Assembly (NCBI RefSeq): GCF_000026545.1
Contig: NC_011601.1
Reading direction: 5' to 3' (one strand)
DNA: 64,000 nucleotides
Source of the DNA: Escherichia coli O127:H6 str. E2348/69
GTDB lineage: Bacteria > Pseudomonadota > Gammaproteobacteria > Enterobacterales > Enterobacteriaceae
The notes below the pieces were generated by a model that saw only the letters and a list, made by a program, of their open reading frames with translations, was not told the origin of the DNA and did no database searches. Positions 4,122 through 53,807 of this stretch are shown one piece after another. The translations under genes and the position numbers were made by a program. Each line of letters begins with the position of its first letter. Within the stretch, counting starts at the first letter, position 1.

Positions 4122-4820
4122 TTACATCATTTCAATCACATCATCATCGCCAGGCTTACCGCCGCTTAGCGCTTCGTCGAAATAATGTTTCGGAATGGTA
4201 TAACGCAAGTGATCCAGGGCTAATTGCATACTGCGATTGTCGATCGCATGGCCTAAATCCTCCACGATATCCAGCGTCACATCGCCACCGGCACTGATTA
4301 ACGCTTCCTGCGCCGCAACCGCATGCGCCAGATCGATAACCGGATCTTCACCGCCATGAATCAAGTGAATTGTTGTGGCTGTAGACGCGGTTTCCGGCAG
4401 GCTCGCGTAGCGTCCGTTGAAGGCAATGACGCGCGAAGCAAGGCCCGGTTCGGCTTTAATGCTCTCCAGCGCCATAATCGCGCCTTGTGAGAAACCGATT
4501 AGCGCCGTGGCATTAGCCCCTACTCCGCTTTGTTTCTGCCAGTAGCGCACCGTCTCAATAAACGTCGGCATGATAGCATCCACACGCGCCTGGCGATTAT
4601 CTTCCGTAATACCCTGCACCGAAAACCACTGACGCCCCGCCGGATTACCGCTCGGCTCCGCGCCACCGACACTCACCACCAGCGCATCAGGAAACAGCGG
4701 CGCAAACCAGCTGCCTATTTCCCCCATTGCCACCGGGTTATCCCCGACACCGTGGAAAAGCAGTAACAACTGTTGTGCTGGTTTATCCGGGCTTTGAACA
4801 ACAAAATGGTCATGTTTCAT
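4122..4820 (-). CDS. ypfH: Esterase/alpha-beta hydrolase YpfH (232 aa)
   Basis: Start taken at MKHDHFVVQ (9th codon of track ORF). Serine hydrolase GFSQG motif. Confidence 0.9.
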   Translation of the reverse strand: MKHDHFVVQSPDKPAQQLLLLFHGVGDNPVAMGEIGSWFAPLFPDALVVSVGGAEPSGNPAGRQWFSVQGITEDNRQARVDAIMPTFIETVRYWQKQSGVGANATALIGFSQGAIMALESIKAEPGLASRVIAFNGRYASLPETASTATTIHLIHGGEDPVIDLAHAVAAQEALISAGGDVTLDIVEDLGHAIDNRSMQLALDHLRYTIPKHYFDEALSGGKPGDDDVIEMM

Positions 4821-52297: not shown

Positions 52298-52504
52298 TTA
52301 CTGACCAAGCAGCGTTTTACCGCTGGTGTTTGCGGTTGAAGTGTCACCCTGCGCACCAGTCAGCAGAGTAGAGCTGCGCCCTGCTGCTGCGCGGCGGCGG
52401 CGCTCTTCGTCGTCACGAGAACTGACAACTGCTGCATCCTGCTCCTGTGGCGCAGCCTGTACTTCTGGCGCTGCTGGCACTGATGGCTTGCTGCCGATAC
52501 ACAT
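52298..52504 (-). CDS. 68-aa Pro/Ala/Arg-rich protein preceding portal
   Basis: ATG behind GGAG (8-nt spacing). MCIGSKPSVPAAPEVQAAP... Confidence 0.5.
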   Translation of the reverse strand: MCIGSKPSVPAAPEVQAAPQEQDAAVVSSRDDEERRRRAAAGRSSTLLTGAQGDTSTANTSGKTLLGQ

Positions 52505-52593
52505 AGCAATAGCTCCGTACGCAATTAAATTATTACCAATTTAACCACATATGATTTATTTAGCGTAGGATATTGACACTTATAACATCAGAT

Positions 52594-52610
52594 ATTACCT
52601 TTTAGGTAAT
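52594..52610. promoter_or_regulatory. Repressor operator, perfect ATTACC-TTTTA-GGTAAT, at 5' edge of the RNA island
   Basis: Exact 17-bp operator palindrome. TTGACA at 52573-52578 lies upstream but no good -10 is visible. Confidence 0.7.
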
Positions 52611-52855
52611 TGGTTCGTGTGTTGAATTGATGAATTGCGGAGGTGGTTATGTAACCGCTTGTGCAGTAGCCCGGAGTACCGCAGCAATAAATTGGGCTTA
52701 AAAGTAAAGGCGGTGGATAAGCGGAGCATCATCTCCGCACATAACTAAAAGCGCGCTTCAGTGAATGACCTTTGAGCCTGGTCGTTAAATCCAAACGGTG
52801 GAGTGCGCTTTCAGGTGTGTAGCAGTACGGCATATGGCACATGTGCCGCAGCGGT

Positions 52856-52891
52856 CCGGATGGGTTCCCTTGATGCTACTTCCCCAGCCGG
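52856..52891 (+). repeat. Hairpin 1 presenting loop motif TTCCCTTGATGCT (52865-52877)
   Basis: CCGGATGGG / CCCAGCCGG stem (one mismatch) with an 18-nt loop. Confidence 0.55.
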
Positions 52892-53055
52892 GTAGCCGGA
52901 ATGTGCAAGCCAGTGTTAGGTAAGCACGGACAGACGATTCACCATCGTGGCGATACGGTGTGACACCTCGGAAGAGACGAGGATGCAACGATGATAGCAT
53001 TGGGGTGACCGGTTAATCCCATGACGATAACCGATACAGGCGCAGTGCTCTCTTC

Positions 53056-53169
53056 GTTGTGGTTAGCTCAGATAGGTTAGAGCTCCATCCATGCTTGCCA
53101 TTGCTGCATGGGCGGGGAATGGGTTCCGAAAGGATCGCCGCGCAGGTTCGAATCCTGCACCACAACCCA
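53056..53169 (+). ncRNA. tRNA-like module (114 nt) with encoded CCA; canonical acceptor, D and T arms but no canonical anticodon loop
   Basis: G-1 + TTGTGGT pairs with ACCACAA + C73, then CCA. D arm is GCTC-AGATAGGTTA-GAGC. T arm is GCAGG-TTCGAAT-CCTGC. 57 nt lie between D and T stems, where a class I tRNA has about 23. Confidence 0.6.
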
Positions 53170-53224
53170 ATCACGCCTTAGGACCGTGATGAAGCGCCCA
53201 TAAGAACAATGCTGTGTAGCCTTT

Positions 53225-53259
53225 GGCGGTGGCAGTTTCCCTTGATGCTGACCACCGTC
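53225..53259 (+). repeat. Hairpin 2 presenting loop motif TTCCCTTGATGCT (53237-53249)
   Basis: GGCGGTGG / CCACCGTC stem with a 19-nt loop. Confidence 0.55.
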
Positions 53260-53338
53260 ACTTTTACACCAGAACGCCATTGCGATGACGTTGCGCTGTA
53301 AACCCGTAAGCCATGGAAGGCACCCTTGCTTCCATTTC

Positions 53339-53363
53339 GCCCGGTTCGTCCGGGCATTTTTTT
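53339..53363 (+). terminator. Intrinsic terminator between structured RNA and the 143-aa ORF
   Basis: GCCCGG-TTCGT-CCGGGC followed by A and T7. The RBS of the next ORF starts 1 nt later. Confidence 0.85.
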
Positions 53364-53375
53364 AAGGTGATTAGA

Positions 53376-53807
53376 ATGAGTAAAGACCTGTTCGACATGA
53401 AGCGCCTTCCGGTTGACCGGGTTGCTGCGAGAGTTGTTGGTAAGGGCGTTGATTGGACGCCAAATAAAGTTATTCAAACTGGTGACAGCGATCTTCCGTT
53501 GCCAGTATTTCCTGCATATAACATTAAAAACCCGCAACAACGACGCGAAGTGCAAGCAATGATCGGAAGAAAGAGCGGGAGATTGACAATAATTGGTCTC
53601 GCGGTCACACAGGGAGCAAAAAATAAAGGGGCTCGCTATGTTGCTCGTTGTGTTTGCGGGATTTATACGTATCGCAGAGCAAAAAATTTCAAGAATAATT
53701 CTGATGATTTTGACGGATGCGAGCGCTGCAGAGAACTGTTGTTTCTCAAAAGGGAAGAAGTTAAACGCAGAACGGGAAAATGGGTTGACTGGAAAGAGCT
53801 GATGTAA
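53376..53807 (+). CDS. 143-aa basic zinc-ribbon protein of unknown function
   Basis: ATG 53376 behind AAGGTGA; the track start 53313 lies inside a hairpin. C-terminal GRLTIIG..ARYVARCVCG(23)CERC pattern resembles a widespread uncharacterised phage zinc-ribbon family (recollection). Confidence 0.6.
   Translation: MSKDLFDMKRLPVDRVAARVVGKGVDWTPNKVIQTGDSDLPLPVFPAYNIKNPQQRREVQAMIGRKSGRLTIIGLAVTQGAKNKGARYVARCVCGIYTYRRAKNFKNNSDDFDGCERCRELLFLKREEVKRRTGKWVDWKELM

Follow-up and report, generated by a model that had tools for sequence, protein, structure and literature searches.

In the tRNA scaffold engineered by Ponchon and Dardel, a payload hairpin replaces the anticodon arm of a tRNA, and the chimera is recognised by cellular factors of Escherichia coli and yields a stable recombinant RNA (PMC3753655). 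Here we describe a natural, phage-encoded module of similar layout, located in a 64,000-nt stretch of contig NC_011601.1 of E. coli O127:H6 str. E2348/69, within an epsilon15-like (Uetakevirus) prophage. This stretch is called the window throughout, and coordinates without further label are positions in it. Like the engineered scaffold, in which the embedded RNA is protected (PMC3753655), the module (53056-53169, plus strand) keeps the acceptor, D, and T arms. It differs in carrying two payload hairpins instead of one, in its 8-bp acceptor, and in its position within a long multi-module transcript, from which it would have to be released by processing. As judged from the sequence and its relatives, the module is a conserved non-decoding tRNA-derived domain, in which the top half of a tRNA is kept while the anticodon/variable region is replaced. 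The explanation we favour, with about an even chance of being right, is that it serves as a natural tRNA scaffold, which would be excised and stabilised by tRNA-maturation enzymes and would show two payload hairpins.

tRNA-like folds serve as processing signals in MALAT1/mascRNA, and the C4 RNA precursor of phages P1 and P7 and the M3 RNA of phi80 are substrates of RNase P. The module resembles these in placing an acceptor/T fold in a longer transcript, where it would define RNA ends rather than decode; it has no sequence relation to them. The tRNA-like domains of tmRNA and YrlA (a Y RNA) likewise mimic acceptor and T arm without an anticodon. Compared with them, the module is contiguous within 114 nt, has a real D arm, and lacks a tag-peptide reading frame. 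GOLLD and ROOL are large phage RNAs associated with tRNAs, and the RNA described here is also a large structured phage non-coding RNA with tRNAs, although host range and architecture are different. Membership in the GOLLD, ROOL, YrlA, or tmRNA families was rejected, as Rfam gave no such match in the whole window at the gathering score or in 1.4 kb at E-values up to 10.

The dicBF RNA of Qin, a prophage of E. coli K-12, shows the same arrangement, with a homologous helix-closed cassette after a long hairpin that carries an RNase III site, in a repressor-controlled operon. The Qin cassette has a different fold, which is not tRNA-like, and the RNA in the window contains an extra motif, here called the core, that is absent from Qin. 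In the literature searched, we found no account of tRNA-like cassettes, of a cassette array, or of such an element at DicF loci or in epsilon15 or phiV10.

Architecture and conservation of the tRNA-like module

The module and the hairpin that follows it consist of these parts:

53056-53063, plus strand: acceptor 5' strand GTTGTGGT, G-1 and positions 1-7, also the 5' strand of the scaffold helix that closes cassettes; invariant in 12 alleles
53066-53083, plus strand: D arm GCTC-AGATAGGTTA-GAGC; stem invariant, aligned by the Rfam tRNA model
53085-53115, plus strand: payload hairpin A, in place of the anticodon arm; 4-6 pairs with compensatory change, loop conserved
53112-53141, plus strand: payload hairpin B, an additional arm formed by GCGG...CCGC, which encloses GTTCC-GAAA-GGATC; GNRA loop in all alleles
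53142-53158, plus strand: T arm GCAGG-TTCGAAT-CCTGC; one covarying pair, loop TTCGAAT or TTCAAAT
53159-53169, plus strand: acceptor 3' strand ACCACAA, C73, and CCA, read from the sequence, the CCA being part of the scaffold linker CCCAATCACG
53170-53190, plus strand: conserved hairpin ATCACG-CCTTAGGAC-CGTGAT, downstream of most cassette types

Every stem and loop named in the initial annotation of this DNA was recovered at the position given there. The 8-bp acceptor helix forms between GTTGTGGT and ACCACAAC (53159-53166) as 7 bp plus G-1:C73, so that TTGTGGT/ACCACAA, C73, and CCA (53167-53169) are arranged as in a canonical tRNA, with G-1:C73 as an additional pair. Positions 8-9 are TA, and the D stem (53066-53069 with 53080-53083) encloses the loop AGATAGGTTA with A14, G18G19, and A21. 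Among alleles the D loop differs in length by 1-3 nt, with GG..TTA kept. The nucleotides expected for the tertiary contacts of D and T arms (U8, A14, G18G19, T54-A58) are all present and invariant in the 12 alleles, and the coaxial acceptor/T minihelix of 8 + 5 bp, together with canonical conserved T and D loops, has the shape of an RNase P substrate. Retention of this minihelix and of the D/T elbow in a non-decoding module had been proposed initially and is upheld here.

Between the D and T stems, two hairpins stand in place of the anticodon and variable region. The aberrantly long insert is real, but it measures 58 nt and not 57 nt as first counted. The stem of hairpin A, CCATGC/GCATGG (53089-53094 with 53106-53111), is extendable to 10 bp and is capped by the 11-nt loop UUGCCAUUGCU (53095-53105, given also as TTGCCATTGCT), which can itself fold as GC-CAUU-GC. 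The GNRA loop of hairpin B is at 53128-53131. The minimum free energy structure predicted by RNAfold is this five-arm fold (-47 kcal/mol, z = -3.06), and 1 of 200 shuffled sequences folded equally well.

tRNA detectors disagreed about the element. ARAGORN found nothing at the module in default and tmRNA modes and, with introns allowed, called a tRNA-Cys(gca) with a 14-nt intron, while the Prokaryotic Genome Annotation Pipeline (PGAP) labels 53057-53169 a pseudogenic tRNA-Gly. In a 136-nt search, the Rfam tRNA model RF00005 matched with 35.8 bits (gathering score 29, E = 1.7e-6), and it aligned to the acceptor, D, and T arms, treating 41 nt as an insertion where the 13-nt anticodon region belongs. 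The same match was missed when the whole window (gathering score) or 1.4 kb (E up to 10) was searched, which is probably an effect of the speed filters and not absence. Tools that conflict or stay silent on the anticodon are expected here because there is no real anticodon arm: the region has a stem of 6-10 bp, an 11-nt loop, and a second hairpin. The claim that no 7-nt anticodon loop can be drawn thus stands, with the region skipped by Rfam, and no standard tRNA call exists for the module. The ARAGORN tRNA-Cys with its 14-nt intron was discarded as artificial, since it conflicts with the Gly label of PGAP and covariation supports another fold. With regard to tmRNA, neither ARAGORN in tmRNA mode nor Rfam gave a match, the fold is contiguous in sequence, and G-C instead of G-U stands at pair 3-70. 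A coding role of the short open reading frames that overlap the module on both strands was rejected as well, because the D-loop insertions and deletions of 1-3 nt among alleles would shift the frame.

Pattern scans of IMG/VR and metagenomes, together with prophages, yielded copies that reduce to 12 distinct alleles of the module; with 12 nt of 3' flank included, 15 sequences can be told apart. A 16-mer scan of metagenomes gave mostly chance matches and recovered about 15 real alleles. The 15 matches from a 19-mer scan of GTDB species genomes, for which we estimate that about 4 would be expected by chance, were all unrelated to the module and probably coding sequence. The exact module is rare, occurring in 10 of 5,426 complete E. 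coli genomes, and was not matched in GenBank phages or PLSDB plasmids.

In the alignment of the 12 alleles, standard pairs occupy 93.8% of cells. Compensatory changes were found at 7-8 pairs, compared with about 1.8 in column shuffles (0 of 500 shuffles reached the observed value) and 0-2 in controls with the partner slid by 1-3 columns. The stem of hairpin A changes from CCATGC/GCATGG to CAATGC/GCATTG, CCATTC/GAATGG, or TCATGA/TCATGA, and its loop UUGCCAUUGCU is conserved, with changes confined to the inner four bases of the possible GC-CAUU-GC. Hairpin B has a GAAA or GAGA loop in 12 of 12 alleles, its closing pair shifts from C-G to A-U in 3, and at loci L134 and L161 its stem is 6 bp long (AGTTCA/TGGACT or AGTTCA/TGAACT). 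One pair of the T stem varies (A-U, C-G, or G-C), while the acceptor, D stem, U8, A14, G15, G18G19, A21, C48, and T54-A58 are invariant. Identity between alleles is 88-95% for the module and 54-85% for the flanks. Since both extra hairpins are kept by compensatory pairs and the apical loops are conserved, we reject decay; on this comparative evidence, the module is selected and is not a decaying tRNA with random insertions.

The most divergent allele, at L161 (IMG/VR 3300034682_000410, ~2000-2950), lies in a different phage context. No core module is present there, two H-type hairpins precede the cassette, and a terminator follows after about 50 nt. Because this context differs, the tRNA-like cassette appears to move between RNA arrays.

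A modular RNA with an exchangeable cassette slot

By sequence comparison, the module is one of several interchangeable cassettes in a modular non-coding RNA of about 790 nt. That it is embedded in a larger RNA, with a conserved hairpin directly behind it, agrees with the initial annotation. The other parts of this RNA are as follows (L numbers denote compared loci, L002 being epsilon15):

52571-52610, plus strand: putative early promoter/operator, with TTGACA at 52573-52578 and the palindrome ATTACCTTTTAGGTAAT at 52594-52610
52632-52745, plus strand: optional 5' module, present in the window, L002, L005, L006, L008, and L134, absent from L003, L004, L135, and L168
52748-52819, plus strand: long hairpin H1, AAAGCGCGC...GTCGTTAAAT...GAGTGCGCTTTCAGGTGTG, homologous to the K-12 Qin hairpin in whose 3' strand the 190-nt DicF species begins
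52827-52982, plus strand: core RNA motif, ...GGCACAUG...GGUAGCCGGAAUGUGCAAG...CCUCGGAAGAGACGAGG, widespread
52985-53059, plus strand: hairpin H2, GCAACGATGATAGCATT...CAGTGCTCTCTTCGTTG; stem covaries between loci, loop unrelated
53225-53270, plus strand: hairpin in the DicF position (53225-53259), GGCGGTGG...CCACCGTC, then CACTTTTAC; assigned by its position after the cassette
53276-53335, plus strand: two further hairpins before the terminator, conserved in alignments
53339-53363, plus strand: intrinsic terminator GCCCGGTTCGTCCGGGC with a T7 tail, which is abutted by the ribosome-binding site of the next gene; conserved across loci

In phages of the SPN1S/SPN9TCW and phiV10 types, alignment places a canonical 77-nt tRNA-Arg(UCU) in the slot of the module. 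The module has the same T arm (GCAGGTTCGAATCCTGC, compared with phage SPN9TCW) and D stem as this tRNA, and the downstream linker and hairpin are shared. The tRNA differs in its UCU anticodon and in its acceptor (GTGGCAT/ATGCCAC), relative to which the register of the module is shifted outward. In this alignment the module looks like a derivative of the tRNA-Arg, with the acceptor register moved outward by three pairs, so that it falls in the scaffold helix, and the 23-nt anticodon/variable region replaced by 58 nt. Because the sister phages have a real tRNA-Arg there, a tRNA-processing site at the slot would be an ancestral or alternative state.

In PAT1, Tyrion, and other prophages, this slot is occupied by unrelated inserts. 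All inserts other than tRNA-Arg are closed by one helix, (C)GTTGTGG(TG)...(CA)CCACAAC(C), and most are then followed by the linker and hairpin CCCAATCACG...CGTGAT. At L022 and L047 the closing helix covaries to GTTGCGG/CCGCAAC (given also as GTTGCGGTG/CACCGCAAC). As the same helix closes other cassettes, the acceptor of the module and its G-1:C73 pair are this scaffold helix. The weight given in the initial annotation to G-1:C73, as the hallmark of tRNA-His, and to the encoded CCA therefore found no support. The pair is present and invariant, but it is the outer pair of a helix that also closes unrelated cassettes, and the same G and C flank non-tRNA inserts, so that it is not specific to the module. 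The CCA comes from the linker CCCAATCACG, which also follows non-tRNA cassettes, and is absent from 4 of the 12 alleles. Therefore, neither feature can by itself be taken as a mark of tRNA-His identity, and a GUG anticodon was not found, as an anticodon loop is missing and the apical loop contains no GTG. The suggestion that the module is an attachment target for a satellite element also found no backing: relatives have further RNA cassettes after the module and not integrated elements.

Cassettes after the core were counted among the 120 core loci listed (at least 120 exist):

tRNA-Arg(UCU) cassette: 25 loci
Qin-type cassette: 23 loci
cassette with two hairpins and complementary loops: 21 loci
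fourth cassette type: 4 loci
hybrid cassette: 1 locus
second tRNA-like cassette (L096): 1 locus
no recognised cassette: 40 loci
flank too short for classification: 5 loci

The commonest non-tRNA cassette carries the hairpins GCGCA-GGCUGAU-GCGC and CCGG-AGAUCAGCA-CCGG beside the closing helix. Two-hairpin cassettes were seen at L016, L021, L023, L034, L057, L060, L071, L073, L083, L085, and L101. Their loops covary, from GCUGAU/AUCAGC to GCUAAU/AUUAGC in L083 and to ACUGA/UCAGU in L101, and could form a kissing pair that replaces the D-loop/T-loop contact of a tRNA. The cassette of L096, which occurs once (minus strand, ~1073-1205), is independently tRNA-like, with 43.9 bits to the Rfam tRNA model and a 64-nt central insert. 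Within 150 nt upstream of it, before the long hairpin, a lone T-arm-like hairpin is followed by ACACAAC (GCAGGTTCAATCCCTGCACACAAC), possibly the 3' remnant of another tRNA-derived cassette. C4 is the immunity RNA of P1 and P7 and is matured by RNase P; Rfam matches to C4 antisense RNA and isrK adjoin each other at L020 (5052-5240) and L016 (2538-2726), outside the cassette arrays.

The K-12 Qin sequence immediately before dicF is homologous to these arrays. Its order is a long hairpin (CCATAAC..AAAGCGCA...GTGCGCTTCCGGTTGTGG), a helix-closed cassette, and DicF, and the cassette is of the same type (type B) as that of the IMG/VR locus L020, in the same helix slot as the module. A 190-nt DicF species made by RNase III is detectable in vivo, and the 53-nt DicF is produced by RNase E (PMC10448788). 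Counting 190 nt back from the annotated 3' end of DicF, we place the RNase III end within the 3' strand of the long hairpin, about 5 nt ahead of GGTTGTGG. Because the 190-nt species spans it, a cassette of this family makes up, in Qin, the 5' domain of an RNA that is processed and stable. Cleavage by RNase III is documented for Qin, and the window is connected to it by sequence homology, having the same succession of a long hairpin and a cassette closed by GTTGTGG...C(C/T)(A/G)CAAC. The region 53211-53260 scored 16.1 bits (E = 2) with the Rfam DicF model RF00039, compared with a gathering score of 48 and 76.7 bits for K-12 DicF. By homology of its frame, the module belongs to the DicF-locus RNA family, without a significant DicF match.

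Hairpin H2, which shares 54-60% identity between loci, stands directly before the module and has a 3' base (CGTTG) that extends into the acceptor 5' strand. Two partners are available to GTTGTGG, an upstream strand of the CACAAC type and the CCACAAC downstream (window 52985-53063; L005, L023, and L132, K-12 Qin, ~4173-4258), and in other alleles the upstream partner is longer (CCATAAC or CACAAC). In multi-unit arrays, this upstream partner is the 3' strand of the previous cassette. The alternative pairing looks like refolding linked to processing, and suggests that cutting of H2 by RNase III may free GTTGTGG to close the cassette. The 3' strands of H-type hairpins (window 53046-53055; L005, L023, L161, L164) read (A)GTGCTCTTTCC or CGCTCTTTTTGA. 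They resemble boxA of Nus-dependent antitermination (TGCTCTTT), which may be a coincidence, as the strand is base-paired and covarying.

Prophage setting and other parts of the RNA

The 1.1 kb that surround the module match the E2348/69 chromosome with 100% identity. For about 870 nt around the module there is no credible gene. To the left, this gap is bordered by a small gp3-like gene on the minus strand (52298-52504) beside the portal gene, and to the right by a small plus-strand gene that precedes the large terminase gene:

53376-53807, plus strand: variable downstream gene (moron), a PGAP coding sequence whose function is not assigned by matches

The product of this gene matches phrog_18493 (unknown function) and shows weak similarity to the HNH endonuclease family; a Pfam search gave no match. 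Among otherwise similar prophages (window, L002-L008, L135-L283) the post-terminator gene varies, and in all of them its ribosome-binding site directly adjoins the T-run of the terminator. A tRNA-related function was looked for in the genes up- and downstream of the module and was not found.

The promoter/operator region is conserved in all epsilon15-type loci, and the GenBank record of epsilon15 annotates repressor and IHF sites there. In the optional 5' module, GGAGGTGGTTATGTAA (52639-52654) combines a Shine-Dalgarno-like stretch with a start codon and, directly after it, a stop codon (ATG-TAA), all within a small palindromic hairpin. A 13-nt direct repeat, TTCCCTTGATGCT, occurs at 52865-52877 and 53237-53249. 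The sequence of epsilon15, in which the middle of the RNA is missing, fits a deletion between these repeats that removes most of the core, H2, the cassette, and half of the DicF-position hairpin. Because a viable phage carries this deletion, the RNA middle is dispensable for growth of epsilon15.

The 19-nt signature of the core, GGTAGCCGGAATGTGCAAG (52891-52909), was found in at least 120 IMG/VR contigs. In phage P1 (L129, 2412-2603) the core lies between trnI and ban in the C1-controlled ban operon, which includes two further tRNAs and a feature annotated as 'dicF-like region', and in mEp390 (L130, 2498-2664) it lies just downstream of the repressor gene. No match to the core was found among the Rfam families searched. 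For 43 diverse core sequences, RNAalifold gave compensatory changes at 9 of 27 pairs, and it predicts an invariant long-range GCACAU/AUGUGC pairing that competes with a local hairpin.

Two ideas involving the core were tried and rejected. Kissing of the module loop UGCCAU with the core loop AUGGCA found no support: L161 has the module without a core, and in L164 a loop change is not cleanly compensated; moreover, the universal partner of the core loop is internal (GCACAU/AUGUGC). A relation to the put antiterminator RNA of HK022 was dismissed on sequence similarity, as distinct from fold: the core profile gave only a chance 15-mer in the nun coding sequence.

Proposed function and alternative explanations

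We propose the following course of events for a natural tRNA scaffold. RNase III would cut the long hairpin just upstream, whereupon GTTGTGG would leave its upstream partner and the acceptor helix would form. The tRNA shape would then recruit the tRNA-maturation enzymes of the host. At the 5' side, cleavage by RNase P would be expected to yield an 8-bp stem, as in tRNA-His, and the 3' side could be processed by RNase E and exonucleases, or by RNase BN and the CCA-adding enzyme. Precise excision would produce a stable RNA of about 114 nt, and these cuts would also part the core RNA upstream from the DicF-position hairpin downstream. The two payload loops would be the working surfaces.

Several observations weigh against this proposal. 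A simple sigma-70 consensus scan called no promoter for the RNA, so that the promoter listed above is a putative one. The extended-H2 fold, in which GTTG pairs with the upstream CAAC, is calculated to be 1.4 kcal/mol better than the acceptor-helix fold (-75.2 versus -73.8 kcal/mol). Non-tRNA cassettes fill the slot in most relatives, hence the tRNA shape is not required for the array. The 4 alleles that lack CCA have CAA (two), AAC (one), or AG (one) instead. For the 11-nt loop, the window contains 4 complements with at most 1 mismatch, its own minus-strand site included, which is not a significant excess over the 2.4 expected by chance. Finally, the alleles are few and much alike (mean column identity 94%; the 93.8% given above refers to pairing), and the covariation signal comes mainly from the divergent alleles L134, L161, L168, and L171.

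Among the alternatives, a structural cap acting in cis is possible, if on balance improbable. The stable fold would stay on the DicF-position RNA and protect it or time its release by RNase E, with the tRNA shape as an ancestral accident. In Qin, a non-tRNA cassette and DicF remain linked in the 190-nt species until cleavage by RNase E (PMC10448788). Many unrelated folds fill the slot, and the acceptor helix is the scaffold helix. However, the invariant tertiary nucleotides of the D and T loops and the conserved apical loops exceed the needs of stability, and the L161 module stands about 50 nt from a terminator without a DicF-position hairpin. We consider it quite unlikely that the module is a decoy or sponge in phage-host or phage-phage conflict, directed at a tRNA-recognising protein of the host or a rival phage (an acceptor-end-modifying toxin, a tRNA nuclease, or a modification enzyme) or, via its loops, at an RNA. 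The neighbouring genes show no link to tRNA biology or defence, known anticodon nucleases need the anticodon loop that is absent here, and the module is rare among E. coli genomes. The diverse cassettes at a fixed slot of a conserved RNA, with recombinant alleles at L083, L246, L258, and L283, do resemble diversifying exchange, and the nucleotides of the tRNA shape and the loops are conserved.

G-1:C73 is the main determinant of E. coli HisRS, and minihelices carrying this pair can be charged. With an 8-bp acceptor, G-1:C73, and, in the window allele, CCA, the module might be aminoacylated by HisRS in the manner of viral tRNA-like structures. We regard this as very unlikely, since pair and CCA belong to a helix and linker common to non-tRNA cassettes, the CCA is missing from a third of the alleles, no GUG anticodon is present, and no use is known for such a charged RNA. 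A functionless, decaying tRNA pseudogene, as the PGAP label implies, would account for the missing anticodon loop and for the viability of epsilon15 after losing the RNA middle. This explanation is disfavoured and highly improbable in view of the compensatory changes in both inserted hairpins and the T stem, the conserved apical loops, the better conservation of the module than of its flanks, and its presence in at least two phage contexts. A decoding tRNA whose odd anticodon arm has an expanded loop or contains a small intron is extremely unlikely, even though Rfam scores the module as a tRNA (35.8 bits) and ARAGORN in intron mode and PGAP each name an anticodon. Their calls disagree (Cys with a 14-nt intron versus Gly), the Rfam alignment skips the whole anticodon region, the 11-nt loop probably folds into GC-CAUU-GC, and the acceptor fits neither Gly nor Cys identity. 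Bacterial tRNA introns, in addition, are group I introns of hundreds of nucleotides.

A wider proposal, which we hold to be doubtful, is that repressor-controlled early transcripts of temperate enterobacterial phages carry arrays of helix-closed cassettes, separated by RNase III hairpins and exchanged by recombination, of which the tRNA-shaped ones would be trans-acting effectors, either decoys or sponges for a tRNA-recognising factor of the host or a rival phage, or regulators acting through their loops.

If the tRNA-scaffold explanation is true, the module is a natural case of a principle that was invented independently in biotechnology: the phage would keep the part of a tRNA that is recognised by the maturation and protection machinery and swap the decoding part for hairpins. 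The module also shows that a selected, structured RNA can lie concealed under a 'pseudogenic tRNA' label in a prophage. The DicF locus is tied to a wider, undescribed family of modular phage RNAs with interchangeable cassettes, true tRNAs included, with members in epsilon15-like phages, in the ban operon of P1, and in early left operons of lambdoid phages. These RNAs offer concrete substrates for the interplay of RNase III, RNase P, and RNase E in the biogenesis of prophage RNAs and, if the trans-effector proposal is true, their cassettes would constitute an accessory-gene system at the level of RNA.

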